A stretch of 64,000 nucleotides of DNA from Gemmatimonadales bacterium (lineage in GTDB: Bacteria; Gemmatimonadota; Gemmatimonadetes; Gemmatimonadales; GWC2-71-9): assembly GCA_036555275.1 (NCBI GenBank), contig DATBLR010000107.1, positions 24,717 through 88,716 on the forward strand, read 5' to 3'. Under the pieces are notes generated by a model, which did no database searches, was not told the DNA's origin, and saw only the letters and a list, made by a program, of their open reading frames with translations. The position numbers and the translations under genes are program-made. Positions 26 to 63,846 of this stretch are shown in pieces (position 1 is the first letter of the stretch; each line of letters opens with the position of its first letter).

Positions 26-116
26 GGCTATCGGCTATCAGCTATCGGCTATCGACCGAAGGACACCGTGGACGCCCTCGACCGCCCCGACGACCGATAG
101 CCGATAGCCGATAGCC
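26..116. repeat. Array-hairpin element, GGCTATC class: 4 tandem heptamers (26-54), 40-nt spacer, 3 reverse-complement heptamers CGATAGC (95-116)
   Basis: Read directly: ggctatc ggctatc agctatc ggctatc g ... cgatagc cgatagc cgatagc c. Ends 9 nt before the panC start. Confidence 0.85.
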
Positions 117-125
117 AACGGCCCG

Positions 126-980
126 ATGCTCGAATTCTCCGACATCCCGCCTCTCCGCACCTGGCTCGCCGACCAGCGGAGCGCCGGCCGGCGGATCGCC
201 CTGGTGCCTACCATGGGCGCGCTGCATGAGGGTCACCTCTCACTGGTGGATGAAGCCCGCCGCCGCGCCGACGCAGTGGTCCTGAGCATCTTCGTCAACC
301 CGCTGCAGTTCGGTCCCCACGAGGACTTTCAGCGCTACCCCCGCGACCTGCAGCGGGACCGTGCCCGCTCGGCGGAGCGAGGAGTCGCCGCGCTGTTCGT
401 TCCTGCGCTGGAGCTGATGTATCCGCCAGGGTCGGAGACCCGGGTTGTGCCGGGAGCGACGGCGGAGCGCTGGGAAGGCGCGATGCGTCCGGGGCACTTC
501 ATCGGGGTCCTGACCGTGGTCGCGAAGCTGTTCCATGTTGTCGCGCCCGACGTCGCGGTGTTCGGGCAGAAAGACATTCAACAGGCCACGCTGGTGCGAC
601 GCATGGTGCGGGATCTCGATTTTGCGGTGGAGCTGGTGATCGCGCCGACGATCCGGGAATCGGATGGTCTGGCGTTGAGCAGCCGCAACGCCTACCTCAA
701 CCCACCCCAACGGCGCCAGGCATTGGCACTCTCGACCGCCCTCCGGACCGCCGAAATGGCATGGCGCGGTGGGGAACAGGATGCCGCGATTCTGGAGCAC
801 CGGATGTGGGAGCAATTCCATACCTTTTCAGGAGTTACGGTAGACTATATTGCCATTGTGGACCCCGATCGCTTGCAGCCTGTCAAAACCGCCGTCCGTG
901 GCACGATCGTCGCAGTTGCTTGCCACGTCGGGCCCACCAGGCTGATCGATAACCACATCCTCGGCATGGAGTTTCGCTGA
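126..980 (+). CDS. panC: Pantoate--beta-alanine ligase
   Basis: 284-aa ORF. PTMGALHEGHLSLV HIGH-type nucleotidyltransferase motif and PanC-like sequence throughout. Confidence 0.93.
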   Translation: MLEFSDIPPLRTWLADQRSAGRRIALVPTMGALHEGHLSLVDEARRRADAVVLSIFVNPLQFGPHEDFQRYPRDLQRDRARSAERGVAALFVPALELMYPPGSETRVVPGATAERWEGAMRPGHFIGVLTVVAKLFHVVAPDVAVFGQKDIQQATLVRRMVRDLDFAVELVIAPTIRESDGLALSSRNAYLNPPQRRQALALSTALRTAEMAWRGGEQDAAILEHRMWEQFHTFSGVTVDYIAIVDPDRLQPVKTAVRGTIVAVACHVGPTRLIDNHILGMEFR

Positions 981-982
981 AC

Positions 983-2005: not shown

Positions 2006-3358
2006 CTACGGCCGGCCAGGCACCAGCCCCAGAACCAGGTCCATCACGTTGGTTCCGGTCATTCCCGTCTTGAAGAGCGCTCCTGCCGCCGCCAGCGCAT
2101 CGTAGCCATGGTGGGTCTGGAGGTCGCGTGCGGGGTCGCGCCCCGCGCGTCGGATGGCGTCCCAGGTGCCGGCCTCCGCAAACCCGCCCGCGGCGTCGGT
2201 AGGCCCGTCCCGCCCATCCGTCCCAGCCGCTAACAAGACCAGCCGCCGAGTCGCCGAGCCGTCGAGCCGTCGAGCCGCTTCGTCAAGAACTCCGGCGGCG
2301 GCAAGGGCCAGCTCCTGGGACCGCCCGCCCAGGCCGGCGTCGGGCGTGAGGGTAACAGTGGTCTCTCCGCCCCAGATCAGGACCGTATCTTTATTCACTC
2401 CGCTGGCTTGCGCGGCCGCGAGCTTTGTGGCATCATATGCCAGCAAGGTCGTGGCGAGCCGCCTGCCCACGTCGGCCGCCTCGCCGGTCAGGGCGGCGTC
2501 CAGCAGCAAGGGCTCCAGTCCCAGTTCCCGGGCCCGCGCCGCAGTGGCTTCAAGGGCCAGCCGGTTGCTGGCGATGAGAATCGTCTGAGTGCTTCGGAAG
2601 GCGGGATCGCCCGGCTTCGGTGTCTCGGGTGCGTCGCCCCGGATCACCGCCTCGAGGTGGTCGCGGAGCTCTGCTGGGATCTTCTCCCACAGGCTGTCGG
2701 TTTCGAGCATGGCTCGGATCTCGGCGGCTCTCGACGGATCTGGAATACAGGGACCTGAGCCGATTGAACCCAGGTCGTCACCGATTACGTCGGAGATTGT
2801 GAAATTTTTCACGTGCGCCGGATGGAGGGCGGCGGCGAGGCGTCCGCCGCCCCAGCGCGCGAACCGTTTGCGGATCCGGTTCATGGCAGTTATATCGAGC
2901 CCGGATCCCAGCAGGAGCCGGAATAACTCGGTGAAATCCGTCGGTCGGAGCCCAGGCAATGGGGCGCCGACGAGGCTCGTCGTGCCCCCCGAGAGGAGTA
3001 CCCACACCTCATCGTCGGGGCCCACGCGGGCTACTGCTTGGCCCACCAGCTCGGCGGCGGCGAATGAACCGGGCCCGGGTTGGGGATGGTCGCCTACCCC
3101 GACAACCAGGCGTGGGTGGGGTGAGGGCGCGGCTTCGGGCAGGACCAGCACTCCTCCTGCGGGCGCGGTTCCCCGGTCGGCCAGGACTTGAACCGCAGCC
3201 TGGGCCATCGGAAGCGAGGCCTTGCCGAGGGCGAACAGATGCACCCGACGGCTGGTGGGGTGCGCGGCGAGCGCCGCCCTCAGGGCGGGCGCCGGTGCCG
3301 CGGCATGGACCGCCGCCCAGTACAGCTCGGTGAGCAGGGTGCGCGGATCAGCCGACAT
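2006..3358 (-). CDS. Glycerate 2-kinase family protein (DUF4147 + MOFRL; TtuD/hydroxypyruvate-reductase-like annotation class)
   Basis: ORF 2006..3583 trimmed to ATG 3358 (MSADPRTLL...). GGETTV and GTDGRDGPTDAAG blocks are present. Confidence 0.85.
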   Translation of the reverse strand: MSADPRTLLTELYWAAVHAAAPAPALRAALAAHPTSRRVHLFALGKASLPMAQAAVQVLADRGTAPAGGVLVLPEAAPSPHPRLVVGVGDHPQPGPGSFAAAELVGQAVARVGPDDEVWVLLSGGTTSLVGAPLPGLRPTDFTELFRLLLGSGLDITAMNRIRKRFARWGGGRLAAALHPAHVKNFTISDVIGDDLGSIGSGPCIPDPSRAAEIRAMLETDSLWEKIPAELRDHLEAVIRGDAPETPKPGDPAFRSTQTILIASNRLALEATAARARELGLEPLLLDAALTGEAADVGRRLATTLLAYDATKLAAAQASGVNKDTVLIWGGETTVTLTPDAGLGGRSQELALAAAGVLDEAARRLDGSATRRLVLLAAGTDGRDGPTDAAGGFAEAGTWDAIRRAGRDPARDLQTHHGYDALAAAGALFKTGMTGTNVMDLVLGLVPGRP

Positions 3359-3401
3359 GGCGGGCGTGGTCAGGCAGGGTCCGGATGATGGTAGCAGGCA
3401 T

Positions 3402-3430
3402 GCGGGCGGTATGAACATACAGCCGCCCGC
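3402..3430. promoter_or_regulatory. 29-bp near-perfect palindrome in the divergent glycerate-kinase <-> sga control region (candidate operator)
   Basis: gcgggcggtatg aa catacagccgcccgc: outer 8 bp are perfect and the core is TATGAACATA. A second inverted repeat, cgagagc-ccgga-gctctcg, follows at about 3441-3465. Confidence 0.35.
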
Positions 3431-5670: not shown

Positions 5671-5681
5671 GAGGGGCCGCC

Positions 5682-5785
5682 GGCTATCGGCTATCAGCTA
5701 TCGGCTGTCGGAGCTTGGGACGAGGTCAGGAGCCCGTCTCGGGCCCCGACGTTAGGGCCGATAGCTGATAGCCGATAGCTGACCA
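5682..5785. repeat. Array-hairpin element, GGCTATC class, in the mcl|mtkA intercistronic gap
   Basis: Left arm ggctatc ggctatc agctatc ggctgtc gg (5682-5711). Right arm gccgata gctgata gccgata gctgacc (5757-5785). The first 25 nt of the left arm are identical to the element at 26-116. Confidence 0.85.
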
Positions 5786-5817: not shown

Positions 5818-6990
5818 GTGGACATCCACGAATACCAATCCAAAGAACTCCTCGCCAACTTCGGCGTCGCCGTCCCGCGGGGCGGGGTGGCCTACAGTGC
5901 CGAGCAGGCGGTCTACCGGGCCGCGGAAATCGGCGGCTCGCGGTGGGCCGTCAAGGCGCAGATCCACTCCGGGGCCCGGGGCAAGGCCGGCGGCATCAAG
6001 TTATGCACCACCGAGGATGAGGTGCGCAAGGCCGCCAACGAGCTGCTCGGCAAGCGCCTGGTCACCCACCAGACCGGGCCCGACGGCAAGGTCGTGCACC
6101 GGTTATATGTCGAGGCCGCAGTGCCCATCGAACGGGAGCTGTACGTCGGCTTCGTTCTGGACCGGAAGAGCGAGCGGATCATGATGGTGGCTCACCCGCA
6201 TGGCGGCATGGAGATCGAGGAGATCGCCAAGAGCGAGCCCGAGACCATCCTCCGCCAGACCATGGAGCCGGCCGTCGGCATGCAGTCGTTTCAGGCGCGC
6301 GAGGTCGCCTTCGGGCTGGGGCTGCCTGCCGCCGCGGTGAACCGGATGGTGAACACGCTGATGGGCTGCCACCGGGCGTTCCGGGAGCTGGACGCCACGA
6401 TGGTGGAGATCAACCCGCTGGTGCTGACCCGGGACGGGCAGCTGCTCGCCCTCGACGCCAAGATGGCCTTCGATGACAACGCCCTGTTCCGGCGCCCCAA
6501 TGTCACCGAGCTCCGCGACCATGCCGAAGAGGACCCCCGCGAGGCACAGGCGTCCGAGCACGGGCTCAACTATGTGGCGCTGGATGGGGAGATCGGCTGC
6601 ATCATCAACGGCGCCGGGTTGGCCATGGCGACCATGGACATGATCAAGCACGCCGGCGGCTCCCCGGCCAACTTCCTCGACGTGGGCGGGGGGGCATCGC
6701 CGGAACGGGTCGCCATGGCGTTCAAGCTGGTGCTGCAGGATCGCAAAGTCGGCGCCATGCTGGTCAACATCTTCGCGGGTATCAACCGCTGCGACTGGGT
6801 GGCCAAGGGCGTGGTGCAGGCTGTGAAGGAAGTCGGGGTGAACGTGCCCCTGGTGGTTAGGCTCGCCGGCACCAATGTGGAGGAAGGCCGCAAGATCATT
6901 CAGGAGTCGGGCCTGCCCATCATCTCGGCGGAGTCGCTTGAGGACGCCGCGGACAAGGTGGTGGCGGCGTGGAAGAAGGCCAAGAAATAG
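5818..6990 (+). CDS. mtkA: Malate--CoA ligase (malate thiokinase) beta subunit; succinyl-CoA ligase beta is the alternative
   Basis: 390 aa with an ATP-grasp N-terminus, [12 protein letters not shown]...[19 protein letters not shown]. Assigned to Mtk rather than SucC from context only. Confidence 0.75.
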
Positions 6991-7065
6991 GGGGAACGGG
7001 GAACCGGGAACGGGGAACGGGCACTGCCTCCTCCCCGTTCTCCGTTCCCCGTTCTCCCATTCCCC
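6991..7065. repeat. Array-hairpin element, GGGGAAC class, in the mtkA|mtkB intercistronic gap
   Basis: ggggaac ggggaac cgggaac ggggaac ggg - 11-nt loop - ccccgtt ctccgtt ccccgtt ctcccat tcccc. Begins on the nucleotide after the mtkA stop. Confidence 0.88.
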
Positions 7066-8976: not shown

Positions 8977-11750
8977 CCCAGGACTATCTCGCTCCGTTTA
9001 CTGCCGGCGCGCTCCCTTCCTCTCCTGATCCGCTCGCAGCCAGCGCCGCCCAATACGCGACCGAGGTAGCGGAGCACCTCTTCTCGCTCCTGGTTGGCGT
9101 CGTCAAGGTCCGACACCCCTACCTCGAGTCGGCCCTCGCGGGCGGGCCGATGGATCCCGGCTGGACCACCGACCAGCTGGAGGCGTGCCTCCGCGCCCAG
9201 GGAATCTGGTTTCAGCTCCTCTCTATCGCCGAGCAGAACGCCGGCATGCGGCGCCGTCGCCAGACTGAGACCGAGCGAGGGGCCGAGCACGTCAAGGGCA
9301 CCCTGAGTCAGGTGCTGCACGACCTGGTCCGCGACGGGATCGCCGAGCCCGACGGCGTGCGGCGCCTGCTTCACGACCTGCGCGTCCGGCCGACCATTAC
9401 GGCCCATCCCACCGAGGCCAAGCGGGTGACGGTGCTGGAAAAGCAGCGCCGCATCTACCGCAAACTCGTGGACCTGGAGTCGCCCCGCTGGACTCCGCGG
9501 GAGCGGGCCCAGCTCACCGAAGCGCTCCGCACCGATATCGAGCTCCTGTGGATGACGGGCGAGCTTCGGCTCGAGAAGCCCACGGTGCCCCAGGAGGTCT
9601 ACTGGGGGCTGCACTTCTTCAGCGAAACCCTGTTCGAGGCCGTGACCGAGACCGCCGAGAAGCTCGAGCGGCTGCTGGCACAGATCTGGCCCGAGGAACG
9701 ATTCGAGATTCCGCCATTCTTCCAGTTCGGTTCCTGGATCGGAGGCGATCGGGACGGGAATCCGTTCGTGACCAACGAGGTCACCCGACGGACGCTGTGC
9801 GAGAACCGGATGGCGAGCCTGCATCGCTATCGCCAGCGACTGGTCGAGCTGCTCAAGACGCTGAGCATCACCGAGCGGGCCGTGACGGTGACGCCCGCCT
9901 TCCGGGCCGCCCTGGACCGCGCCCTGGGAGAGAGCGGCGATGGCCCCGGGATCATCTCCCGCAACCCCGGCGAGATTTTTCGCCAGTATCTCGCCTGCAT
10001 GATGCACAAGCTCGAGGGCGCGATTCGGCATGCCGAGCGGGGAGGCAAGGCCCTGGCGGGCGACGGCTACGGCTCGGCCGACGAGCTGCTGACCGATCTG
10101 CGCATCCTCGAGAATGCGCTCCGGGACGGAGGCAGCGCCACGCTCGCGAGCCAGCTCTTGCGGCCGGTGCGGCGCGAGGTCGAGACCTTTCGCTTCAGTA
10201 CCGTCCGGCTCGATCTCCGGGAAAATACGGCCCGCCTGACCGAGGCGCTGGTGGCACTCTGGCGCATCACGACGGGCCAGGGCGGCGACCCGCCGGCGCT
10301 GGCTTCGGATGAGTGGAAGGGCTGGCTCCTGGGGGAGCTGGCCCGGCCCCGCCGGGGCGACCGGCCGCCGGAGGCGTTCCCGCCGGGGGTGCGGGAGACC
10401 ATCGGCATGTTTCGGCTCGTGGGGGAAATGCGGGCCGGGCTGGATCGGGAGGCCTTCGGCGCCTTCATCCTCAGCATGACCCGCGAGGTTGCCGATGTGC
10501 TCGGTGTTTACCTCCTGGCCAAGGTGGCGGGCCTCTTCGCCGACGAGTCGGGGGTGGAGAGCTGCACTCTCCCCATTGTCCCGCTGTTCGAGACCATTGA
10601 CGACCTGCACCGCGCACCCGGGATGATGCGGGAGCTCCTTAGCATCCCGGTGGTGCGGCGGACGGTGCGGGCTCTCGGCGGAGCCCAGGAAGTGATGATC
10701 GGTTATTCGGACAGCAACAAGGATGGCGGCTACTTGTCCTCCAACTGGGAGCTGTCCAAAGCCCAGACCCGACTCACCCGGCTGGGCGAGGAGCTTGGGG
10801 TCCCGATCAGCTTCTTCCACGGGCGAGGCGGGTCGGTAAGCCGGGGAGGCGCGCCGCTGGGCCGATCTATCGCGGCCCAGCCTGCCGGATCCATCCGGGG
10901 CCGGATGCGGGTGACAGAGCAGGGGGAGGTTGTCTCGCTCAAATACGCCAACCGGGGCACCGCGCAGTACCAGGTGGAGCTCCTTGCCGCGAGCGTGATC
11001 GAGCATTCCTTCCGCTCCGAGCAGGAGGCGGCCCTCGCCCCGACCAGCGAATTCGACGAGGCCATGGAGGCTCTCTCCGGCGCGGCCCAGGCGGCCTACC
11101 GCCGCTTCGTCGAGCGCCCCGATCTGATCGGCTACTTCACTGCCGCGAGCCCGCTGGAGGAGCTCACCCTGCTGAACATCGGCTCCCGGCCGGCACGCCG
11201 CACTGGCGCCCGGACCCTGGCCGATCTGCGGGCGATTCCCTGGGTGTTCGCCTGGTCGCAGAACCGGCACTTCATCACCGGCTGGTACGGGATGGGAAGC
11301 GGGCTCCAGACCTTCATGCAGATCCGGGGCGAGCGGGGGGAGAAGCTGCTCAAACGAATGCTGGAAGGCTCGCGACTGTTCCAGCTGCTGCTCGATGAGG
11401 TGGAGAAGACCCTGGCCTATGTCGATCTCGACATCGCCCGCATGTATGCGGAGCTGGTCCCCGAGGCAACCTGCCGGGACGCGATCTTCGGCTTGGTGGA
11501 GGAGGAGCACCATCGCACCGTCGAGGCCGTCCTGCGAGTGAGCGGGGCCTCGGAGCTGGCCGAGCGCTTTCCCCGGTTCCGCCGCCGCCTGGCGCGTCGC
11601 ATGGCGACCATCAATCAGGTGAGCCGACAGCAGGTGGAGCTGCTGCGCCGCTTCCGAGCGGCTGCGAGTGAGTCGGAGCGGCAGCGCTACCTCTCCGCAT
11701 TGCTCCTCTCGATCAATTGCATCTCGCTCGGGTTCGGGGCGACGGGGTGA
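8973..11750 (+). CDS. ppc: Phosphoenolpyruvate carboxylase
   Basis: ORF 8400..11750 trimmed to GTG 8973 (GTGTGA overlap with hprA), giving about 925 aa. Motifs TAHPTEAKR and GYSDSNKDGG. Confidence 0.9.
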   Translation: MTQDYLAPFTAGALPSSPDPLAASAAQYATEVAEHLFSLLVGVVKVRHPYLESALAGGPMDPGWTTDQLEACLRAQGIWFQLLSIAEQNAGMRRRRQTETERGAEHVKGTLSQVLHDLVRDGIAEPDGVRRLLHDLRVRPTITAHPTEAKRVTVLEKQRRIYRKLVDLESPRWTPRERAQLTEALRTDIELLWMTGELRLEKPTVPQEVYWGLHFFSETLFEAVTETAEKLERLLAQIWPEERFEIPPFFQFGSWIGGDRDGNPFVTNEVTRRTLCENRMASLHRYRQRLVELLKTLSITERAVTVTPAFRAALDRALGESGDGPGIISRNPGEIFRQYLACMMHKLEGAIRHAERGGKALAGDGYGSADELLTDLRILENALRDGGSATLASQLLRPVRREVETFRFSTVRLDLRENTARLTEALVALWRITTGQGGDPPALASDEWKGWLLGELARPRRGDRPPEAFPPGVRETIGMFRLVGEMRAGLDREAFGAFILSMTREVADVLGVYLLAKVAGLFADESGVESCTLPIVPLFETIDDLHRAPGMMRELLSIPVVRRTVRALGGAQEVMIGYSDSNKDGGYLSSNWELSKAQTRLTRLGEELGVPISFFHGRGGSVSRGGAPLGRSIAAQPAGSIRGRMRVTEQGEVVSLKYANRGTAQYQVELLAASVIEHSFRSEQEAALAPTSEFDEAMEALSGAAQAAYRRFVERPDLIGYFTAASPLEELTLLNIGSRPARRTGARTLADLRAIPWVFAWSQNRHFITGWYGMGSGLQTFMQIRGERGEKLLKRMLEGSRLFQLLLDEVEKTLAYVDLDIARMYAELVPEATCRDAIFGLVEEEHHRTVEAVLRVSGASELAERFPRFRRRLARRMATINQVSRQQVELLRRFRAAASESERQRYLSALLLSINCISLGFGATG

Positions 11751-11752
11751 CG

Positions 11753-11851
11753 GGACGAGGCGAGGAGGCGAAAAGGCCAGCAGGCTAGGTCGACGGTTGC
11801 CGGTGTCCCCCTGCCAGTTGGCCTCCTGGCCTCCTCGCCTGCTGGCCTTCC
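11753..11851. repeat. Purine-rich / pyrimidine-rich complementary segments between convergent ppc and rlmN
   Basis: gaggcgaggagg and ggccagcagg (11753-11785) have complements cctcctcgcc and cctgctggcc (11820-11851). The complements are in the same, not mirrored, order. The right part overlaps the rlmN 3' end. Confidence 0.5.
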
Positions 11852-13488: not shown

Positions 13489-15278
13489 CCGACGCCACTT
13501 CGCTCCGCACCCATCGCGCCGGCAGTCTCCGTCGCCAGCATGCGGGACTGGCCGTGCGACTCGGGGGGTGGGTCCATCGGGTGCGGGACCTGGGCGGGGT
13601 CATCTTCATGGACCTGCGGGACCGGGACGGGCTGGTCCAGTTGTCCTTCGATCCCAAGTGGACTCCCGCGGACGTTCTGGCCCTCGCGGGAACGGTGGGC
13701 CAGGAGACGGTGATCATGGTCGACGGCACGGTGCAGCTTCGCCCGGAGACCGCTCGGGATACCGCGCTCCCCTCGCGCGACGTGGAGGTCCGGGTCTCCA
13801 GGCTCCAGATCGCCGGGCCGGCGCAAACGCCCGCGATTCCAGTCTCCCGGAAGGAGGGAGAGGACCTCCCCGCCGAAGAGCTCCGGCTCAAGCACCGGGT
13901 GCTGGATCTGCGTCGTCCGGAGCTGCAGCAAAACCTCATCCTCCGTCATCGCCTGTTGCAGCGGGCCAGGCGCACCCTGGCCGATCTGGGCTTTCTGGAG
14001 ATCGAAACGCCGATCCTCACCAAGCCGACCCCCGAGGGAGCGCGCGACTACCTGGTGCCCAGCCGGGTGCATGTCGGGGAGTTCTACGCCCTGCCGCAGT
14101 CGCCACAGATCTACAAGCAGCTGCTGATGGTGGCGGGCTTTGACCGCTACTTCCAGATCGCCCGGTGCTTCCGTGACGAGGATCTCCGGGCCGACCGGCA
14201 GCCGGAGTTCACCCAGATCGACCTCGAGTCTTCGTTCGTCGGGCAGGAGGACGTACAGGGTTACGTCGAGGCCGTGCTGGTGGCGCTGTGGGACGAGGCG
14301 GGCCAACCGGTCAAGGCTCCCTTTCCCCGGCTCGCCTACCGCGATGCGATGGAGCGCTACGGCATCGACAAACCCGATCTCCGATTCGGTCTTGAGCTTC
14401 AGGATTTCTCCTCGGCCGCGCGGGGTGATGCGGCCGAGTTCGTCACCGCGGCGATCGCGGCGGGGGGACGGCTGCGAGGCATTCTCGCAGAGGGGGCGGG
14501 GAATGCCAGCCGCAAGGAGCTGGACGCGCTGACCGCGGTGGCCAAATCCGCCCGGGCCGGCGGCCTCCTCTGGGCTCGGCGGGCGCCGACCGGCTGGGAA
14601 GGACAGGGCGTCAAGGCGTTCGGCGCGGAGGGGCTCGGAACACTGCCGGCTCGCGAGGGGGATCTGCTCCTTGCAGTGGTCGGCAAGGACGAGGTCACGA
14701 GCCCCGCTCTCCACGCGGTACGCATGGAGCTGGTGAAACGGGCCGGGACACCCGTTTCCACCAGGCATGCCTTCTGCTGGATCGTGGACTTTCCGCTATT
14801 CGAGCAGGATCCGGAGACGAAACAGTGGGTCTTCGTGCACCACCCCTTCACCTCACCGCACCCCGACGATCTCGGGAAGCTGGAAAGCGATCCCTGGCAC
14901 TGCCGGGCGCTCCACTATGACGCGGTCTATAACGGCACCGAGCTGGGCAGCGGTTCGATCCGGATCACCGATCCTGAAGTGCAGCGCACCGTGTTCCGGC
15001 TGCTGGGTACCGGTCCCGAGGAAATCCGGCGGCGTTTCGGATTCCTGCTCGATGGGTTGGCGGCCGGGGCTCCTCCGCATGGCGGTTTCGCGCTGGGCTT
15101 CGACCGTATTTCGATGCTGCTCGCCGGTGCGACCAGCTTGCGCGACGTGATCGCGTTCCCGAAGACCACCGCCGCGCGCGCGCTGTTCGAGGGCGCACCG
15201 ACGCGAGTGAGTGACGAAGAGCTGAGGGCGTTGCATCTGCAACTGCGGGACGAGGGAACGGGGAACGGGGAACGGTAG
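13485..15278 (+). CDS. aspS: Aspartate--tRNA ligase
   Basis: 597 aa. Class II motifs FQIARCFRDEDLRADRQPEFTQID and GGFALGFDRISMLL. The last 8 codons (EGTGNGER) are the left arm of a GGGGAAC hairpin. Confidence 0.93.
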   Translation: MTDATSLRTHRAGSLRRQHAGLAVRLGGWVHRVRDLGGVIFMDLRDRDGLVQLSFDPKWTPADVLALAGTVGQETVIMVDGTVQLRPETARDTALPSRDVEVRVSRLQIAGPAQTPAIPVSRKEGEDLPAEELRLKHRVLDLRRPELQQNLILRHRLLQRARRTLADLGFLEIETPILTKPTPEGARDYLVPSRVHVGEFYALPQSPQIYKQLLMVAGFDRYFQIARCFRDEDLRADRQPEFTQIDLESSFVGQEDVQGYVEAVLVALWDEAGQPVKAPFPRLAYRDAMERYGIDKPDLRFGLELQDFSSAARGDAAEFVTAAIAAGGRLRGILAEGAGNASRKELDALTAVAKSARAGGLLWARRAPTGWEGQGVKAFGAEGLGTLPAREGDLLLAVVGKDEVTSPALHAVRMELVKRAGTPVSTRHAFCWIVDFPLFEQDPETKQWVFVHHPFTSPHPDDLGKLESDPWHCRALHYDAVYNGTELGSGSIRITDPEVQRTVFRLLGTGPEEIRRRFGFLLDGLAAGAPPHGGFALGFDRISMLLAGATSLRDVIAFPKTTAARALFEGAPTRVSDEELRALHLQLRDEGTGNGER

Positions 15279-15320
15279 CACAGCCGCGCCCGTTCCCCGT
15301 TCCCTGTTCCCTTTTCCCCA
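15252..15320. repeat. Array-hairpin element, GGGGAAC class, aspS|phoH junction
   Basis: gagggaac ggggaac ggggaac gg - tagcacagccgcgc - ccgttcc ccgttcc ctgttcc cttttcc cc. Ends 14 nt before the phoH start. Confidence 0.85.
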
Positions 15321-17661: not shown

Positions 17662-18172
17662 CCGGCTCGGCGGCTCGGCGACTCGTCGGCTCGGCAGGAG
17701 GAGCTCGGCGACGCCCGGCCGGTCTTCGCAGCTGACGGTCCGGGTGGCGGGCGACCGGGTCCGCCTGCCGCTCTCGGCCGGGCGTGTACGCCGGGTCGTC
17801 AGGGCTGTATGGTCTGCCGAGGGCCGAGCCGCCGAACCGCCGAGCCGGCAAGCCGACGTCAGCATCGTGTTCGTTGGCCCGGCGCGTATGCGGCTCCTCA
17901 ACCGCGCCTGGAAACGCCACGACCGTGCGACCGATGTGCTGGCCTTCACGCTGCACTCGCCGGGGGGCGGGCTGACAGGAGAGGTGTACATTTGTGCCGC
18001 AATCGCCCGCGCGGCAGCCCGGGAGCACGGGGTCCCGGCGCAGGAAGAGCTGGTTCGGCTGGTGGTGCACGGCACCCTGCACCTGCTGGGCTACGACCAC
18101 CCCGAGAGTGCGGCCCGGACCCGCTCGCCGATGTGGCGGCGGCAAGAACGCTTCGTAGAGGCGCTCGCGTGA
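17627..18172 (+). CDS. ybeY: rRNA maturation endoribonuclease YbeY
   Basis: HGTLHLLGYDH zinc-binding motif and TDVLAF block. The start is ambiguous: TTG 17627 overlaps the previous gene and would translate both repeat arms. Confidence 0.8.
   Translation: MVGSRKTLGGNSRLGGSATRRLGRRSSATPGRSSQLTVRVAGDRVRLPLSAGRVRRVVRAVWSAEGRAAEPPSRQADVSIVFVGPARMRLLNRAWKRHDRATDVLAFTLHSPGGGLTGEVYICAAIARAAAREHGVPAQEELVRLVVHGTLHLLGYDHPESAARTRSPMWRRQERFVEALA
17662..17858. repeat. Octamer-array inverted repeat (TCGGCGGC class): left arm 17662-17695, right arm 17823-17858
   Basis: c tcggcggc tcggcgac tcgtcggc tcggcagg ... gccgagcc gccgaacc gccgagcc ggcaagcc. The left arm starts on the nucleotide after the 7TM-HD stop. 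The right arm lies inside the ybeY reading frame. Confidence 0.75.
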
Positions 18173-20573: not shown

Positions 20574-21919
20574 TTCACCCGGCGGCGATCGTCCGATCGA
20601 TGCTCGATCTGGTCCGCCGCGGGAACCTGCGGGGTTTCCTGGCGCTCGCCGAGAAGGCCGAACCGGCCGATCTGGGTGACGTACTGTCCTCGCTCGACGA
20701 GGAGCAGCGACTGGAGGTGGTGAAGGCGCTTCCCGCCAAGCTCTCCGGTGCGGCCCTGGTTGAGATGCCGGACGAGAGCCAGGCCGAGGAGACCCTGGAG
20801 CACCTGGCCGCCGAGGCTCCCGAGGCGGCCGGTGAGATCGTCGAAGAGCTCCCCGACGATGAGGCCGCCGACCTGGTCGGCGGCCTCAATCCCGAAGATC
20901 AGGAACGCATCCTGGCCGTAGTCGAGGACCGGGAAGACATCGAGGAGCTGCTTCGCTACGACCCGGAGACGGCCGGCGGGCTGATGACGGCCCACGTGGT
21001 CAAGGTACGCAGTACCGATTCGGCTGGCGAAGCCATTGAGTCGCTGCGGCGGCAAGCCGAAGAGATCGAGGACTTCTCTCAGGTGTACGTCGTGGACGAG
21101 CGCAGCCACCTGCTGGGCGTCCTGCCGATCAAGCGACTGGTGATCAGCCCGGCCGCGCGCCGGGTCGGTGAGATCATGGAGGACACCGATATCCGGGTCG
21201 CGCCCGAGACCGACCAGGAAGAGGTGGCGCGGTTGATGAGCCGATACGACGTGCCGGCCGTCGCGGTGGTCGATGGCGGCGGCAAGCTGCTCGGCCAGGT
21301 CACCTTCGACGATGTCATCGACGTGGTCGAAGCGGAGCAGACCGAGGATCTGCTCCAGTTCGGTGGCACCTCGGCGGACGAGGAGCTGGCGGCGCCGTGG
21401 ACCGGTGCGGTGCGCAGTCGGCTCCCCTGGCTTCTGGTCAACCTGATCACCGCGTTCGCAGCCGGCGCGGTCGCGAGCTACTTCAGCGGCAAGGTCGCCG
21501 CGGTGCGGGGCCTGATCTTCTGGATGCCGGTGATCGCGGGGATGGGCGGGAATGGCGGCACCCAGGCACTCGCGGTGAATGTGCGTCGAGTGGCCCTGGG
21601 ACTGGTGCCGGTGGGGAAGGCGGTGCCGATCATCGGCAAGGAAATGCTGGCCGGATGCGCCAACGGCGCGGTCAACGGGATCGCCGCAGCCGTCGTCGCG
21701 TTCGGGCTGGGCCATGGCGCGAATCTGGGCCTGGTGGTGTTCCTTGCGATGACCGGCAATCTGTTCGTCGCGGGATTCGCCGGCGCCTTCATCCCGCTCT
21801 TGCTCAATCGGCTGGGCGTCGATCCGGCGGTCGCGTCCTCCATCTTCGTCACGACGTTTACCGACGTGTGCGGCTACGCCCTGTTGTTCGGGCTGGCGGG
21901 GTGGTTGCTGGGGGTGTAG
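20570..21919 (+). CDS. mgtE: Magnesium transporter MgtE
   Basis: 449 aa: MgtE N-domain, CBS pair, then C-terminal TM helices with a GNGGTQ-type block. Confidence 0.88.
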   Translation: MIHPAAIVRSMLDLVRRGNLRGFLALAEKAEPADLGDVLSSLDEEQRLEVVKALPAKLSGAALVEMPDESQAEETLEHLAAEAPEAAGEIVEELPDDEAADLVGGLNPEDQERILAVVEDREDIEELLRYDPETAGGLMTAHVVKVRSTDSAGEAIESLRRQAEEIEDFSQVYVVDERSHLLGVLPIKRLVISPAARRVGEIMEDTDIRVAPETDQEEVARLMSRYDVPAVAVVDGGGKLLGQVTFDDVIDVVEAEQTEDLLQFGGTSADEELAAPWTGAVRSRLPWLLVNLITAFAAGAVASYFSGKVAAVRGLIFWMPVIAGMGGNGGTQALAVNVRRVALGLVPVGKAVPIIGKEMLAGCANGAVNGIAAAVVAFGLGHGANLGLVVFLAMTGNLFVAGFAGAFIPLLLNRLGVDPAVASSIFVTTFTDVCGYALLFGLAGWLLGV

Positions 21920-21984
21920 ACGGGCAGGACGGACAGGACGGGCAGGGCGCACTTGACCGTTCTGACCGTCTTGTCCGTCTTTGT
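21919..21984. repeat. Array-hairpin element with 9-nt units (GACGGNCAG) between convergent mgtE and the TonB-dependent receptor gene
   Basis: gacgggcag gacggacag gacgggcag gg - cgcact - tgaccgttc tgaccgtct tgtccgtct. Begins at the mgtE stop codon. Confidence 0.75.
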
Positions 21985-31952: not shown

Positions 31953-31967
31953 CGTGGGCTTTCGTAA

Positions 31968-32096
31968 CTGGTACCGGGTACCGCGTATCGCGTACCGGTT
32001 CCCGTGGGGCATATACCGGATGCCCGGTCGCCGCATATCGGTCGATTCCTTACCCGTACTCGGTACGCGGTACTGGGTACTCGGCACCAGGTACTC
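31968..32096. repeat. Array-hairpin element, GGTACCG class, between the mutase large subunit and the eRF1-like gene
   Basis: ct ggtaccg ggtaccg cgtatcg cgtaccg g - 54-nt spacer - ccgtact cggtacg cggtact gggtact cggcacc aggtact c. Ends 14 nt before ATG 32111. Confidence 0.85.
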
Positions 32097-34386: not shown

Positions 34387-36015
34387 GTGACTACGACGAC
34401 TCCTCCCCGGAACTCGCGGCTCAGGAGCCTGACCGAGGAATATCTCGCCCTCGCGGCAAAGCTCCGGGAAGGTGGTGGGGCCAAGCGGGTGGCGAGGATG
34501 CACCAGAAAGGGCAGCTCTCCCCACGCGAGCGGGTTCACGGGCTGCTCGATCCGGGGACCCCCTGGCTCGAGATAGGCCTGCTGGTCGCGTACGACCAAT
34601 ACGACGGCCAGGCGCCCGGCGCGGGGGTGGTTACGGGGCTCGGGGTGGTCGAGGGACACGAAGTCGTGATCGTCGCCAACGATGCCACGGTCAAGGCGGG
34701 CTCCTGGTGGCCCGAGACGATCCGGAAGATCCTGCGGGCACAGGAGATCGCGATGCGCCAGCGGATCCCGATCATCTACCTGGTGGATTCGGCCGGGGTA
34801 AACCTCCCCTATCAGGGCGGCGTGTTCCCGGGACAATACGGGGCCGCCCGAATCTTCTACTACAACTCGCTGATGCGGCGCTACCTGAACGTGCCCCAGA
34901 TCAGCGCGGTCATGGGAAGCTGCATCGCCGGCGGCGCGTACCTCCCGGCGCTGTCCGATGTGATCTTCATGGTCGAAGGCACCAGCTTCATGGGCCTCGG
35001 CGGGCCCAACCTGGTCAAGGGCGCCACTGGCCAGATGGTGGACCCCGATACGCTCGGCGGCGCCGCCATGCACACCTCCGTCTCCGCCGTCGCGCACTAT
35101 CGCGCCGCGACCGATGCGGAATGCCTCAAGATGATCCGCGGCTACGTGGCCCGGTTGCCCAGCCTCCGAGCCGTCGAGCCGCCGAGCCCTCGTGTCTCCG
35201 AGCCGCCCAGCCGGCCCGCCACCGATCTCTACGACCTTCTTCCCACTGACCACCGCATGTCCTACGACATGCACGCACTGCTTGGGTGCTTTCTCGATGG
35301 CGGGAGGCTGGATGAATTCCAGCCGGACATCGCGCGGGAACTGCTCTGCGGTCACGCCTGGATCGAGGGGAGACCGGTCGCGATCCTGGCCAACGCCCGA
35401 ACGGTGATCAAGGGGAAGTCAGGGCAGATGCCGCGGATCGGCGGAATCGTCTACACGGAAAGCGCCGAGAAGGCGGCCTACTTTATCGAAACGGCGAGTC
35501 GGCAGCGGATCCCGCTGCTCTTCGTGCAGGACGTCAGCGGTTTCATGGTCGGCAGCGAGGCGGAGCAGTCAGGCATCATCCGGGCCGGTGCGCGCTTCGT
35601 CGAGGCGATGGCGACCGCAGTCGTCCCCAAACTGGTGTTGACGGTCAACCATGCGTCGGGTGCCGGGTATTACGCCATGGCAGGGCAGGGATTCGACCCC
35701 GACTTCATTCTCAGCTGGCCCACGGGCCGTATGGCTGTCATGGAAGGAGAGTCGGCCGTGGAGGCGGTCCACGGGGTGGAGTTGGCACGGTCCCGCGCGG
35801 AAAAGCGGGCGCCCGCAAAGGAAGTACAGGCCTCCGCCGCCAGCATGCGAGCCGATTACGAGCACCAGCTCGACGCGAAGTATGCGGCAGCGCGCGGCTT
35901 CGTGGACGCCATCGTGACGGTCGAGGAGACCCGCGAGGTACTTGCCTTCCTGCTGCGAACGACGTCGGGCTTCGGCGGCCCGCATATCGGACCCTTCGTG
36001 CTGCCGCCGCTATGA
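34387..36015 (+). CDS. Acyl-CoA carboxylase carboxyltransferase (beta) subunit, methylcrotonyl-/geranyl-CoA carboxylase-like
   Basis: 542 aa. Blocks LSPRERVHGLLDPGTPWLEI, IVANDATVKAGSWWP and AVMGSCIAGGAYLPA. No biotin-carboxylase partner is present in the window. Confidence 0.85.
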   Translation: MTTTTPPRNSRLRSLTEEYLALAAKLREGGGAKRVARMHQKGQLSPRERVHGLLDPGTPWLEIGLLVAYDQYDGQAPGAGVVTGLGVVEGHEVVIVANDATVKAGSWWPETIRKILRAQEIAMRQRIPIIYLVDSAGVNLPYQGGVFPGQYGAARIFYYNSLMRRYLNVPQISAVMGSCIAGGAYLPALSDVIFMVEGTSFMGLGGPNLVKGATGQMVDPDTLGGAAMHTSVSAVAHYRAATDAECLKMIRGYVARLPSLRAVEPPSPRVSEPPSRPATDLYDLLPTDHRMSYDMHALLGCFLDGGRLDEFQPDIARELLCGHAWIEGRPVAILANARTVIKGKSGQMPRIGGIVYTESAEKAAYFIETASRQRIPLLFVQDVSGFMVGSEAEQSGIIRAGARFVEAMATAVVPKLVLTVNHASGAGYYAMAGQGFDPDFILSWPTGRMAVMEGESAVEAVHGVELARSRAEKRAPAKEVQASAASMRADYEHQLDAKYAAARGFVDAIVTVEETREVLAFLLRTTSGFGGPHIGPFVLPPL

Positions 36016-52245: not shown

Positions 52246-52748
52246 CAGACTGCGAGTCGGTTACCGATCGGATCCCGGTGGTCGCGCTTGGTCGCGACGC
52301 TTGGACCGCCGAGGAGGCGGCACACCTTGCCTCCTGCCCCGCCTGCCAGGCCGAGTGGAAGGTTGTCGAGACGGCTCGGCGGCTCGGCGACTCGGCGGCT
52401 CGCCGTGTCGATCCGGACCGGGTGAACAGCATCGTGATCGCACGGCTGCGCGCAGATCGGCGCTGGAGGCGGGCGGCGTGGATCGGTGCGGTCGCGGTCG
52501 CGGCTGCCATGGCGCTTGTGGTGTGGACCGGTCGGCCGACACACCAGGCTGGCCCGATCGCCACCAGGGGAGCGGTTGGGTTCCACCTGCCGCTTGCCGA
52601 ATTGGACCGCCTCGACAGTGGGCAGCTCGAGCGGATCTTGGAGGATCTGGAGGCTCCGCTCGGCGCCCAGGCGGCGCCGGAGGCTCCGGAGCTGGGCGAC
52701 CTGAAGGATTCGGAACTCGAACGTGTGCTTCGCACCCTGGAGGGTTGA
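52242..52748 (+). CDS. Anti-sigma factor (zf-HC2 N-terminus, one TM helix)
   Basis: HLASCPACQAEW, TM segment AAWIGAVAVAAAMALVVW. Contains an octamer DNA array at about 52372-52407 (ARRLGDSAARR). Confidence 0.7.
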   Translation: MTDCESVTDRIPVVALGRDAWTAEEAAHLASCPACQAEWKVVETARRLGDSAARRVDPDRVNSIVIARLRADRRWRRAAWIGAVAVAAAMALVVWTGRPTHQAGPIATRGAVGFHLPLAELDRLDSGQLERILEDLEAPLGAQAAPEAPELGDLKDSELERVLRTLEG

Positions 52749-61126: not shown

Positions 61127-62266
61127 ATGAGCGACGGAACCGCTCCCCCGGCCATTCGCGGTCTCGACAACGTCATTGCCCTTCAGTCCTCGGTGTGTCG
61201 GCTCTCCGCCGACGACGGGGGCCTCTCCTACCGTGGCTACGACGTCCGGGAGCTCGGCGAGCGGTCGAGCTACGAAGAAACGGCATTCCTCCTGATTCAC
61301 GGGCACCTGCCGGGAAGCGCCGAGCTCAGGCAGTTCACCGGCGAGCTCAGGGCGGCGCAGAAGCTCAGTCCCCTGATAGTACGCACCATGAAAGGGCTGC
61401 CGCCCGGGGCTGATGCCATGGCCGGACTTCGGGCAGCTCTGGCGGTCCTGGCGATCGAACATCCCGTCAGTGTGCCTCCGTCGCGAGCGGACGCGCTGGT
61501 GCAGGGCACGCGGCTCGTGGCCGTTACCCCGACCATCGTAGCGGCGTGGCATCGGCTCCGCTCCGGCCAGCGGCCCGTGCTGCCCAGAAAGAGCCTGAGC
61601 TTCGCCGCCAATTTCCTGGCTATGACCACGGGAGACCTGCCGCCGCCGGAGTCGGTGCACGCCTTCGACGTCGCCCTGGTTCTCCGGGCCGACAATGAGT
61701 TGAATCCGTCCACGTTTGCCGCCCGCGTCACCGCGGCCACCGGGGCCGACGTCTTCGGTGGTGTGATCGCCGGATGCTCCGCCCTGGCCGGGCCCCGGCA
61801 TGGCTGGCACACTCGCACCGTGATGGCGACGCTGGAGGAGATAGGGTCACCGGAGCGGGTGCCTGACTGGGTTCAGGGACGCCTGGCCGGGCGGAAACCA
61901 ATTGCTGGGTTTGGCCACGTGGTGTATCGCGGCGAGGATCCGCGCACCGAACTGCTCCGGTCCCTCGCGGAGGCCGAGTGCCAGCGCGCCGGGCTAGGGC
62001 CGATGTTCCGCACCGCGCGCGAACTGGAAGTCACCGTGGTGCGTGAAACCGGACAGCACCCGATCGTGGACTTCTATCTGGCGCCGCTTTATCGGGCCCT
62101 CGGGTTTCCGACCGATCTGTTCACTGCGGTCTTTGCGGTGAGCCGGATGTGCGGCTGGGTGGCGCACATTCTGGAGCAGTACACCGACGAGAAGCTGCTT
62201 CGCCCAAGGGCCGAGTATATTGGTCCCGTCGATCTCGCGTACCGGTCCATCCGAAAGCGTCGCTGA
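61127..62266 (+). CDS. Citrate synthase family protein (citrate or 2-methylcitrate synthase, short type)
   Basis: 379 aa. GLSYRGYDVREL, GPRHGW (for GPLHGG), GFGHVVYRGEDPR and VSRMCGWVAHILEQ blocks. Confidence 0.82.
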   Translation: MSDGTAPPAIRGLDNVIALQSSVCRLSADDGGLSYRGYDVRELGERSSYEETAFLLIHGHLPGSAELRQFTGELRAAQKLSPLIVRTMKGLPPGADAMAGLRAALAVLAIEHPVSVPPSRADALVQGTRLVAVTPTIVAAWHRLRSGQRPVLPRKSLSFAANFLAMTTGDLPPPESVHAFDVALVLRADNELNPSTFAARVTAATGADVFGGVIAGCSALAGPRHGWHTRTVMATLEEIGSPERVPDWVQGRLAGRKPIAGFGHVVYRGEDPRTELLRSLAEAECQRAGLGPMFRTARELEVTVVRETGQHPIVDFYLAPLYRALGFPTDLFTAVFAVSRMCGWVAHILEQYTDEKLLRPRAEYIGPVDLAYRSIRKRR

Positions 62267-62271
62267 TCACC

Positions 62272-63756
62272 ATGCCCTTTGCCTCGTCTGTCGTGTCCGC
62301 TCAGCCCGCCGGGTATGCCACCCCCCTTCTGGCCGTCGCGGTGCCGGCGGGAGTGATGCCGCCCTCGCTTGCCTCCCTGGATGCCCAGACGGGTGGTGCG
62401 ATATCGCGAGTGTACGCCTCGAGTGATTTCACCGGGAAGAAGGACGAGCAGGCCCTGCTGCACCCCGGCGGGCCCGCATCGCGGATCCTGCTCCTCGGTC
62501 TCGGCAAGATGGACGAAGCCGGCCGCAATGGCCTTCGGCGGGCGGCGGCCGCCGCCGGCAAGCGTGCCCGGGTGCTCGGCGTGCCGTCCCTGGCCTTTTT
62601 CCTTCCGCCCGAAGGACGGGGAGCTCTGACCGCACGCGACACCGGGCAGCTTATCGCCGAAGGCTTGTCCTTTGGGCAGTGGCACTTTCTGGAGATGAAG
62701 CTGCCGCCCGAGGAGAAGAAGCCCGTCCTCGAGCAAGGTGTAATCCTGGCCCCGACCGACACGTCCGAGGTCACCGCTGGTCATGCCGTGGGGGAAGGGA
62801 TCGCCGCAGGACAGACGTTCACGCGCAACCTCCAGGTATTGCCGGGCAACGTGTGCACCCCGACGTATCTCGCGGCCCAGGCAGGGGAGCTGGCGCGCCG
62901 GCACGGATTCAGGGTCACCGTGCTGGATCTCGCCGCGATCCGGGCGGAAAAGATGGGCGCCCTGCTCGCGGTGGCCCAGGGTGCCGTCGAAGAACCGAAG
63001 TTCATCGTGCTCGAGTACGAGGGCGCGAAAGGGGCCCCGGTGGTGCTGGTGGGGAAGGGCATCACGTTCGATACTGGCGGGATCTCGATCAAGCCCGCGG
63101 ACAAGATGGAGGAGATGAAGTACGATATGTCGGGCGCCGCTGCGGTACTCGGGACCTTCGAGATGCTGGGGCGTGTCAGGCCTAAGGTCCACGTCGTGGG
63201 CGTGGTTCCCGCCACCGAGAACATGCCGAGCGGGACGGCGGTCAAACCGGGTGACGTGGTCAAGAGTCACTTCGGCAAGACCATCGAGATCATCAATACC
63301 GACGCCGAGGGGCGACTGATTCTGTGTGATGCCCTGTCCTACGCCAGGCGGTTCAAGCCCGCCTGTGTGGTTGACGCGGCCACGCTCACCGGGGCGGTGG
63401 TCGTGGCCCTGGGACACGTGGCGACCGGGGTCATGGGAGCGGATGAGGCACTGCTCGAGGAGTTACGCCGGGCGGGGGAACGGGCCGGCGAGCGGATCTG
63501 GCCGCTCCCCATGTGGGAGGAGTATCGCGACCTCATCAAGTCTGACATCGCCGATGTGAAGAACTCCGGTGGCCGTCCTGCCGGCAGCATTACGGCGGGC
63601 TGGTTCCTCCGGGAGTTCGTCGAGGGATTTCCCTGGGCCCATCTGGACATCGCCGGAACCGCGTACAGCGACCGGGAAGACGCCACCCGGGTCAAGGGTC
63701 CCACGGGGATCTGTATGCGGCTGTTCGCGGAGTTCGTGCTGGGCCGGAGCCAGTGA
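62272..63756 (+). CDS. pepA: Leucyl aminopeptidase (M17)
   Basis: ORF 62149..63756 trimmed to ATG 62272. VGKGITFDTGGISIKP and NTDAEGRLILCDAL blocks. Confidence 0.92.
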   Translation: MPFASSVVSAQPAGYATPLLAVAVPAGVMPPSLASLDAQTGGAISRVYASSDFTGKKDEQALLHPGGPASRILLLGLGKMDEAGRNGLRRAAAAAGKRARVLGVPSLAFFLPPEGRGALTARDTGQLIAEGLSFGQWHFLEMKLPPEEKKPVLEQGVILAPTDTSEVTAGHAVGEGIAAGQTFTRNLQVLPGNVCTPTYLAAQAGELARRHGFRVTVLDLAAIRAEKMGALLAVAQGAVEEPKFIVLEYEGAKGAPVVLVGKGITFDTGGISIKPADKMEEMKYDMSGAAAVLGTFEMLGRVRPKVHVVGVVPATENMPSGTAVKPGDVVKSHFGKTIEIINTDAEGRLILCDALSYARRFKPACVVDAATLTGAVVVALGHVATGVMGADEALLEELRRAGERAGERIWPLPMWEEYRDLIKSDIADVKNSGGRPAGSITAGWFLREFVEGFPWAHLDIAGTAYSDREDATRVKGPTGICMRLFAEFVLGRSQ

Positions 63757-63846
63757 GGAGCAGGGGGAAGACGGGGGAACGGGGAACGGGGAGTGGGGCA
63801 GGGCGAGGTCACTCCCGTTCCCCGTTCTCCCGTTCCCTGCTCCCCA
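63757..63846. repeat. Array-hairpin element, GGGGAAC class, immediately after the pepA stop
   Basis: ggagcagggggaagac gggggaac ggggaac ggggagt gggg - loop - cactcc cgttccc cgttctc ccgttcc ctgctcccc. The right arm abuts ATG 63846. Confidence 0.85.

Follow-up and report, generated by a model that had tools for sequence, protein, structure and literature searches.

The DNA examined here, referred to as the window, is a stretch of 64,000 nucleotides from the genome of a Gemmatimonadales bacterium (assembly GCA_036555275.1, contig DATBLR010000107.1, forward-strand positions 24,717 to 88,716), and the subject of the analysis is a set of hairpins that adjoin the stop codons of its genes and whose two arms are themselves tandem arrays of short units. 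The relatives of MtkA place the window in the Gemmatimonadales, and the nearest protein in large collections is 95% identical. Pfam annotation shows an ordinary housekeeping region, containing panB and panC; a serine-cycle cluster of glycerate kinase, sga, mcl, mtkA, mtkB, and ppc; aspS, phoH, a 7TM-HD gene, ybeY, and a CorC-type gene; mgtE and a TonB-dependent receptor gene; meaB and the genes for methylmalonyl-CoA mutase and a carboxyltransferase; and those for RNase E/G, ribosomal protein L21, and citrate synthase, together with pepA. Nine hairpins at gene junctions in this region share one design—that is, a tandem array of a 7-, 8-, or 9-nt unit, a spacer, and then a tandem array of the reverse complement of that unit.

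Architecture of the Paired-Array Hairpins

Eight of these loci had been described in an original prediction as having a common architecture with differing unit sequences, next to stop codons. Direct reading and Tandem Repeats Finder located all eight where they had been placed, and the shared architecture and position held across the loci. A looser scan of the window returned exactly nine paired elements, namely these eight and one more at 11757–11848. The arms contain 2.7–5.9 copies of the unit (Tandem Repeats Finder and our own detector), and the spacer is 1–63 nt long, or 127 nt in the octamer element. Units are heptamers in six of the nine elements, octamers in two, and a 9-mer in one, with at least six different units within the window. 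Our detector found 13 seed arrays, 11 of which have a reverse-complement partner (partner scores of paired arrays, 11–26), whereas 40 dinucleotide-preserving shuffles of the window gave a mean of 0.75 arrays, none of them partnered. Among the window's strongest inverted repeats, the majority are these elements. Folded as RNA, the elements reach −50 to −136 kcal/mol, with z scores of −4.2 to −9.4 for eight of the nine and a weaker −2.2 for the ninth.

The complementarity of the arms stays high in all nine hairpins, whether the unit has 7, 8, or 9 nt. The prediction that the periodicity resides at the nucleic-acid level was supported; its argument that the unit lengths are not multiples of 3 applies to the 7- and 8-mers and fails for the 9-mer. 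On direct reading, no sequence beyond each element's own unit is common to all nine, and Rfam gave no match to any of them. The sole Rfam match in the window is a tRNA-Leu (anticodon CAA) at 57117–57199, also the only RNA gene found there by Rfam and ARAGORN.

Elements at Individual Junctions

Two elements on the plus strand are built of GGCTATC. E1 (26..116; arms 26–54 and 94–116; spacer 39 nt) separates panB (stop codon 15–17) from panC (ATG at 126) and folds at −53.2 kcal/mol (z −7.8). E2 (5681..5785; arms 5681–5711 and 5757–5785) separates mcl (stop codon 5668–5670) from mtkA (GTG at 5818), folds at −80.3 kcal/mol (z −9.1), and contains a small non-periodic hairpin in its spacer. Three further plus-strand elements share the unit GGGGAAC. 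E3 (6990..7065; arms 6991–7021 and 7032–7065; −59.1 kcal/mol, z −7.6) lies between mtkA (stop codon 6988–6990) and mtkB (ATG at 7091). E5 (15247..15320; arms 15252–15275 and 15289–15319; −61.6 kcal/mol, z −9.4) lies over the last eight codons of aspS, whose stop codon (15276–15278) falls within the loop, and ends 14 nt ahead of phoH (ATG at 15335). E9 (63757..63846; arms 63757–63792 and 63812–63846; −70.4 kcal/mol, z −6.8) fills the entire gap between pepA (stop codon 63754–63756) and the next open reading frame (ORF; ATG at 63847), and its predicted fold has an outer stem in which stop-codon and start-codon bases pair with each other.

GGTACCG-like units make up E8 (31964..32096, plus strand; arms 31970–31998 and 32056–32096; −71.5 kcal/mol, z −4.2), which separates the methylmalonyl-CoA mutase gene (stop codon 31950–31952) from a baeRF-like gene (ATG at 32111). 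The latter gene (32111–33262), directly 3′ of the mutase gene and E8, matches baeRF family 10 and family 2 (bacterial archaeo-eukaryotic release-factor-like). The remaining two intergenic elements, to which no strand is assigned, are found at convergent junctions. E7 (21919..21984; arms 21919–21946 and 21957–21984), with the 9-mer GACGGGCAG, follows mgtE (stop codon 21917–21919) and faces the minus-strand TonB-dependent receptor gene, which ends at 21994; it folds at −49.6 kcal/mol on the plus strand and −35.3 kcal/mol on the minus strand. The ninth element (11735..11850; arms 11757–11789 and 11813–11848), a weakly periodic 8-mer at the ppc/radical SAM junction, has a fold energy of −69.8 kcal/mol but a z score of only −2.2, and its initial units overlap the final ppc codons.

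The octamer element E6 (17663..17855, plus strand), a pair of CGGCTCGG arrays with arms at 17663–17695 and 17823–17855, folds at −135.7 kcal/mol (z −4.7). Its left arm begins 1 nt past the stop codon of the 7TM-HD gene (17659–17661). However, ybeY is the frame-2 ORF at 17627–18172, and its product aligns with the Aquifex YbeY structure (PDB 1oz9) over residues 43–165, without a gap at residues 66–77, which are encoded by the right arm (17823–17855). The right arm, encoding AAEPPSRQA, is thus coding sequence. The pair is kept in a 94%-identical relative (L204/L205, at 20917–21085), so that E6 may still be meaningful, yet it is atypical and fits the class imperfectly. As for the 7TM-HD gene, located between phoH and ybeY, it is itself intact in the window (16282–17661), missing in L202 (20390–20609), and fragmented in L204/L205 (L204, 20479–21118).

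Octamer arrays also occur unpaired. One of CGCCGAGC type at 2244..2277 (minus strand; best partner score 7) lies inside the glycerate kinase gene, in a region of extra residues relative to PDB 1x3l, and has a unit related to that of E6. Another at 35157..35213 (plus strand), with about seven units of GCCGAGCC, lies inside the carboxyltransferase gene and encodes the variable linker VEPPSPRVSEPPSRPA. A third, with 3.9 units of CGGCTCGG (52372..52402, plus strand; partner score 8), is found inside the ORF after an ECF sigma factor gene, and a weaker one at 29907..29930 is also inside coding sequence. Translated, these in-gene arrays (GCCGAGCC/CGGCTCGG) give short stretches of low complexity (EPPSR and GSATRRL, for example), which fall in variable protein loops of glycerate kinase, the carboxyltransferase, YbeY, and the product of the ORF following the ECF sigma gene.

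Position Relative to Genes and Transcription

With gene calls taken from Pfam-supported genes, seven of the nine elements lie between co-directional genes, two between convergent genes, and none between divergent genes. The first arm had been predicted to start 0–15 nt after the stop codon or inside the last codons (aspS), and in all nine it abuts or overlaps the stop, beginning 0–17 nt past it or overlapping it. The companion claim, that the second arm ends 0–32 nt before the next start, held for panC, mtkA, mtkB, phoH, the baeRF-like gene, and the ORF at 63847, and failed for the octamer element, the right arm of which is ybeY coding sequence. E3 leaves 25 nt up to the mtkB start and E9 leaves none (0 nt) up to the next ATG, and these gaps are too small for a promoter. 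Judged by this spacing, E3 and E9 must be transcribed through as parts of operon mRNAs.

Location at gene 3′ ends, including two convergent junctions and never a divergent one in the window, is also what would be expected of two-way transcription terminators or attenuators, in which RNA polymerase would pause or be released at a strong stem with a pyrimidine-rich 3′ arm. The purine-rich 5′ arm and pyrimidine-rich 3′ arm resemble the A-tract, hairpin, and U-tract layout of such terminators, CTTTGTT comes directly after E7, and the end of E5 is CCCTTTTCCCC. In addition, classical hairpin-plus-T-run terminators are not enriched over shuffles in the first 40 kb (11 vs. 7.7 expected, and 11 vs. 8.4). 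However, T-rich tails are partial and confined to E7 and E5, most elements lack a T-run altogether, and the terminator scan reported none of the nine. A scan of 1–40000 for the intrinsic-terminator consensus (a GC-rich stem, a loop of 3–8 nt, and a T-run) flagged none of the elements. Furthermore, E1, E3, and E9 split genes of one pathway or enzyme and leave no room for a promoter, so that efficient termination would silence panC, mtkB, and the ORF after pepA. We therefore regard termination as an unlikely main role. Classical terminators are few in the first 40 kb; one of them, at 24944–24973 (minus strand), has a 13-bp GC-rich stem followed by TTTTCCTT after a helix-hairpin-helix (ComEA-like) gene, indicating that the organism is able to use ordinary terminators.

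Occurrence in Relatives and Metagenomes

As had been proposed, related genomes were scanned for the design, and it recurs: eight paired arrays were found in 227 kb of Gemmatimonadales sequence, made up of 15 loci in synteny with the window, compared with one in 65 proteobacterial loci (1172 kb). The latter, in the Methylobacterium locus L035, was rejected as a false match inside coding sequence. The units seen in relatives include AGTCGCC, TCGAAGG, GACTCCC, CGCCCGAC, GCGGGGCA, GGCGCAGAA, GTGAGAA, GTGAAAC, GGGAATC, GGTGAGC, and AGTACCG; L018 uses GGGAATC/GGGGAAT. Thus, the design is common in the order Gemmatimonadales, with many units, and among paired arrays a unit length of 7 nt is dominant, followed by 8 and 9 nt.

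A metagenome scan for the GGCTATC array returned at least 120 contigs, with GC contents of 0.44 to 0.73 for those with GGCTATC/AGCTATC arrays, and 80 loci (399 kb) were retained. These loci, having been chosen for GGCTATC arrays, contain 32 paired arrays of many units and 156 unpaired ones. Use of the pattern scan as a copy count of the element family was therefore rejected: it returns mostly unpaired GGCTATC arrays from varied organisms and measures the spread of the unit. The original prediction counted equally common partnerless arrays as evidence against itself, and outside the heptamers this is partly the case, given the in-gene octamers of the window and the unpaired majority on the metagenome contigs.

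The paired arrays have a marked polarity. Where the unit is purine-skewed (25 paired arrays), the purine-rich arm lies 5′ in about 24, and in GGCTATC elements the GGCTATC arm almost always comes first; over all 47 pairs, arm order is 32 to 14 (p = 0.01). As an inverted repeat is identical on both strands, this polarity is independent of gene direction.

Synteny with relatives extends over a complete serine-cycle-type cluster at 2006–11750, conserved across the Gemmatimonadales and comprising glycerate kinase, serine-glyoxylate aminotransferase, malyl-CoA lyase, both subunits of malate thiokinase, and PEP carboxylase; the orthologue of its gene at 8010–8976 in relatives is a 2-hydroxyacid dehydrogenase. 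The window also contains a second repeat family, consisting of near-perfect palindromes around GGGGCCGCATGCATGCGGCCCC at 1950–2018 and 56399–56502. The former, at the convergent LytR_C/glycerate kinase junction, has GTAG...CTAC ends, is partly triplicated with a period of 23, and looks like a classical GTAG-tagged repetitive extragenic palindromic (REP) sequence.

Comparison of Junctions between Species

Comparison of empty sites across relatives showed that, without an element, the stop and start codons overlap or abut. The empty panB/panC site in L001 is a TGATG overlap (GAGTGATGCCC); the empty mtkA/mtkB site in most species is an ATGA overlap (...GGGAACGG...CCATGAGC); and the empty aspS/phoH site in L003 reads GCGATGGCTGACGAC, with ATGGCTGA as the stop/start overlap. 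The elements are thus insertions into tightly coupled junctions.

Some elements persist between species. The panB/panC GGCTATC element is also found in L204–206, where arms of 7 and 2.5 units enclose a loop of about 9 nt (CTATCGGAT), compared with 4 and 3.3 units and a 39-nt spacer in the window, confirming the expectation that unit number differs between related genomes. At the same junction, L202 retains one GATAGCC remnant and L004 one GGGCTATCGG, unique in 227 kb. A hairpin with the unit GTGARAA, that is, GTGA(A/G)AA, is common to the aspS/phoH junctions of L004, L007, and L009, with 4–9 units. For some elements, persistence at one junction spans species with no more than about 72% DNA identity in the flanking genes.

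Other junctions turn over rapidly. At mcl/mtkA, the unit is GGCTATC in the window, GGTGAGC in L204, GTGAAAC in L201 and L202, AGTCGCC in L004, and TCGAAGG in L008, with a non-periodic hairpin in L003 and L006 and nothing in L001 and L203. At ppc/radical SAM, the window, L003, L004, and L008 have four different periodic hairpins, and L007 and L009 have nothing. E3 is absent from every relative examined. The non-periodic hairpin at mcl/mtkA in L003 (~9900–9990) and L006 (~9900–9980), GTCATCCTGAGCGAAGCGAAGGAGCC...GGCTCCTTCGCTTCGCTCAGGATGAC, also occurs in L004 (15950–16070), nested in the loop of the periodic hairpin at ppc/radical SAM, and appears to represent another repeat family competing for the same junctions. 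The large element in L008 at ppc/radical SAM (15884–16101) has 9-mer arms, GGCGCAGAA and GGACGCAGA, and four copies of a 19-nt repeat, GGCCGCGGGAGACGCAGAG, in its loop region. The stop codon lies within the first arm in L008 and, for aspS, in L004; and in L004 at 9820–9980 the mcl frame reads through the whole periodic hairpin, lengthening the predicted protein by about 45 residues.

Two accounts of these patterns were weighed. [quoted passage not shown] Clean presence or absence between relatives, different units at one junction in near relatives, units repeated within one genome (GGCTATC twice, GGGGAAC three times), and the occurrence of GGCTATC/AGCTATC arrays on metagenome contigs of such varied GC content would all fit. 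However, when the flanks of filled and empty sites were read, no target-site duplications, flanking direct repeats, or conserved termini were seen, unlike in MITEs. Copies with the same unit lack whole-element similarity, having unrelated spacers and unit numbers that differ between arms and between copies, and the E3 unit matches ancestral local coding sequence, as described below. The AGCTATC shared by E1 and E2 as their third unit was dropped as a sign of copying, the G/A alternation there being general to the unit and common in GGCTATC arrays of many unrelated contigs. Pfam scans of approximately 50 window proteins revealed no domain of a transposase, REP-associated ones included, or of a reverse transcriptase. 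Overall, mobility is considered an improbable explanation.

Alternatively, the hairpins may be functionless, self-folding by-products of a lineage tendency to duplicate 7–9-nt units, surviving where they are harmless. The rapid turnover between species, the many relatives doing well with empty junctions, the frequently unequal arm lengths, and the existence of similar arrays unpaired and inside coding loops all speak for this account. Against it stand the persistence of some elements at one junction across species as divergent as those above, the high complementarity kept in all nine window hairpins, and the strong polarity, which suggests constraint. A complete lack of function therefore seems doubtful to us, about as doubtful as mobility.

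Relation to Known Repeats

The original prediction knew of no described family combining REP-like position with arrays of short repeats, but such a case has been published: Rehm et al. (2015; PLoS One 10:e0144275; PMC4692102) described convergent pairs of GGGAATC arrays near stop codons in Xanthomonas. X. campestris and X. axonopodis each contain approximately 185 arrays, with 70–75 convergent pairs in which the two arrays lie on opposite strands; 89–93% of arrays are intergenic, their distance from the upstream ORF averages 28 nt, and some extend over the stop codon (PMC4692102). They have 2–26 units, most commonly four, the first arm lies 0–50 bp from the stop, and they are mostly found between same-direction genes, rarely between divergent ones, and are mostly transcribed (PMC4692102). 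Unit number and sequence vary between species, and the authors found no function and favored a G-quadruplex (PMC4692102).

The window elements share with these pairs a heptamer array followed nearby by its reverse complement in convergent order, with the G-rich arm first, at least two units, an intergenic position with the first arm within about 50 bp of the stop, mainly co-directional flanking genes, and variable unit number. They differ in unit: only GGGGAAC (three loci) resembles the GGGNATC type with its quadruplex-capable G-tracts. Thus, in every structural respect except unit sequence, the window elements belong with the Xanthomonas class. The Xanthomonas pairs constitute one G-rich unit family, whereas many units are found here, in a different phylum, with empty sites that are overlapping stop/start codons and one unit traceable to local ancestral sequence.

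G-quadruplex or i-motif formation in DNA or RNA, as proposed for the Xanthomonas GGGAATC arrays, is for these reasons of unit sequence extremely unlikely to be the basis of the elements. The GGGGAAC arrays do provide three to four G-tracts, and GGGAATC oligonucleotides form quadruplexes in vitro (Rehm et al., PMC4692102). However, G-tracts of at least three are missing from GGCTATC, GGTACCG, CGGCTCGG, and the ppc-junction 8-mers in the window, the 9-mer GACGGGCAG has a single GGG, and AGTCGCC, TCGAAGG, and GTGAAAC in relatives likewise have no G-run. With most units unable to form quadruplexes, this explanation cannot be general; furthermore, every array is matched by its complement, which favors a duplex stem.

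REP sequences and bacterial interspersed mosaic elements (BIMEs) are extragenic palindromes at gene 3′ ends in operons, where they are transcribed as stem-loops and, in E. coli, protect upstream mRNA from 3′ exonucleases. The window elements are similarly palindromic and located at gene 3′ ends inside operons, and by analogy a REP-like role is possible. They differ in having internally periodic arms, no conserved sequence, and no GTAG tag in any of the nine; PMC3733652 describes REPs as conserved palindromes of 20–40 nt that carry a GTAG or CGTC tag and have a transposase associated with them.

Abundant intergenic tandem heptamers near start or stop codons also characterize the cyanobacterial short tandemly repeated repetitive (STRR) sequences, Nostoc GGGGA(C/T)T, and Beggiatoaceae TAACTGA. 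Unlike the present elements, those arrays are overwhelmingly direct and partnerless, with few pairs in Nostoc and one inverted case among 170 sets in Beggiatoa; the cyanobacterial STRRs differ from the paired Gemmatimonadales arrays in their units as well. Heptanucleotide simple repeats are in general excess in bacteria, with slippage proposed as the source (Mrazek et al., 2007, as cited in PMC4679880 and PMC4692102). The dominance of 7 nt here, followed by 8 and 9, agrees with that excess, whereas that work concerned direct arrays and not pairing or stop-codon position. In the literature on Gemmatimonadota repeat elements and on tandem-repeat hairpins beside stop codons, nothing closer than the study by Rehm et al. 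(2015) was found. New here are the range of units, mostly incapable of forming quadruplexes, the lineage and phylum, and the strong bias of the purine arm to the 5′ side. The comparison between species adds that the elements are insertions into coupled junctions, with strong polarity, and that at least one has apparently grown from a local seed.

Origin and Possible Role

Traces of such a seed are seen at several junctions. Relatives without E3 have a single GGGGAAC or GGGAACGG in the last mtkA codons, exactly at the junction (L001, L003, L004, L008, L203, and L204), for which the chance expectation is about 0.002 per 30 nt. In the ninth element, the first 8-mers are the conserved last ppc codons, GGGGCGACGGG. 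The lone GGGCTATCGG at panB/panC in L004 likewise fits growth in place. The correspondence of the E3 unit to the ancestral mtkA end, and of these 8-mers to ppc codons, points to amplification of a local seed in place, and at least E3 seems to have grown in this way.

The original prediction that periodic stems tolerate slippage was supported in silico. When a single unit is removed from either arm, the energy penalty is +1 to +16 kcal/mol, compared with +15 to +31 kcal/mol in non-periodic controls, and duplication of one unit changes the energy by −2 to −10 kcal/mol, compared with +0.3 to +6.4 kcal/mol in non-periodic control hairpins. In these models, periodic stems withstand slippage better than non-periodic ones. 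A known route from imperfect to perfect palindromes is fold-back template switching. In Xanthomonas, 7-nt arrays, GGGAATC included, change by single-repeat steps (PMC6459536).

These observations are consistent with the following sequence of events. A seed at a gene end would be amplified through replication slippage, and the second arm would be made and kept matched via fold-back template switching, selection, or both, with the outcome that 70–200 nt are inserted where stop and start codons once overlapped. The elements would then be transcribed in operon mRNAs and fold into 25–35-bp stems, and this folding would hold the upstream stop near the downstream start, such that gene coupling could survive the insertion. 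The stem may block 3′ exonucleases in the manner of a REP sequence, be cut by RNase III, or function as a leaky terminator. Periodicity would mainly be a legacy of formation, with the side effect that gain or loss of units re-registers the stem and does not break it. We infer from sequence and position that the elements probably act as transcribed hairpins within operon mRNAs. The reading as a whole—counterparts of the Xanthomonas pairs, arising as slippage-grown insertions and transcribed as stem-loops in operons, with candidate functions as barriers, RNase III sites, or leaky terminators—has, in our estimation, about an even chance of being correct.

Several points weigh against it. The polarity with the purine arm 5′ is not predicted by plain slippage and fold-back. 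One unit recurs at several loci of a single genome and in at least 120 unrelated metagenome contigs, and close relatives often have a different unit at the same junction, which looks more like replacement than gradual drift. The suggested tunability of stem length was not seen over short times: elements are identical in three assemblies with 99.91% identity, with no indel in 21 kb and no change in unit number, and slippage is thus not fast. L201 and L202 do differ inside elements, but a mutation hot spot was rejected because they are 96–98% identical overall and background divergence is expected. G-U pairs number 37 on the plus strand and 26 on the minus strand, a modest sense preference; overall, the sense strand has a slightly better fold, and the antisense strand of E1 folds better than the sense strand (−69.1 vs. 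−53.2 kcal/mol); RNA-level selection as a conclusion from this asymmetry was set aside. The functional steps, moreover, are so far read from sequence.

The points on polarity and recurrence could be accommodated by a dedicated directional process that builds the hairpins, by widespread operon punctuation in soil bacteria read by a repeat-recognizing factor, or by both, although we consider this very unlikely. Such a process might, for example, extend both 3′ ends on a template where DNA is broken or a fork has stalled; this, if true, would automatically generate N units, a filler, and N reverse-complement units, with the purine-rich strand pointing inward. A directional process would explain the polarity of about 24:1, the recurrence of units (GGCTATC, GGGAATC/GGGGAAC) across unrelated lineages, and the replacement of units at a fixed junction.

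Implications

Among the simple repeats of many bacteria, heptamers show the greatest over-representation. In this lineage, strong intergenic hairpins are mainly of the paired type, placed where translationally coupled genes meet. The elements displace stop codons, extend ORFs, and rewrite C-termini, and they will thus mislead gene callers and assemblers working on metagenome-derived Gemmatimonadota genomes. They also offer a system suited to asking how new RNA structure arises inside operons, how a junction can absorb 100 nt and yet work, and whether the polarity of the arms stems from mutation or from function.

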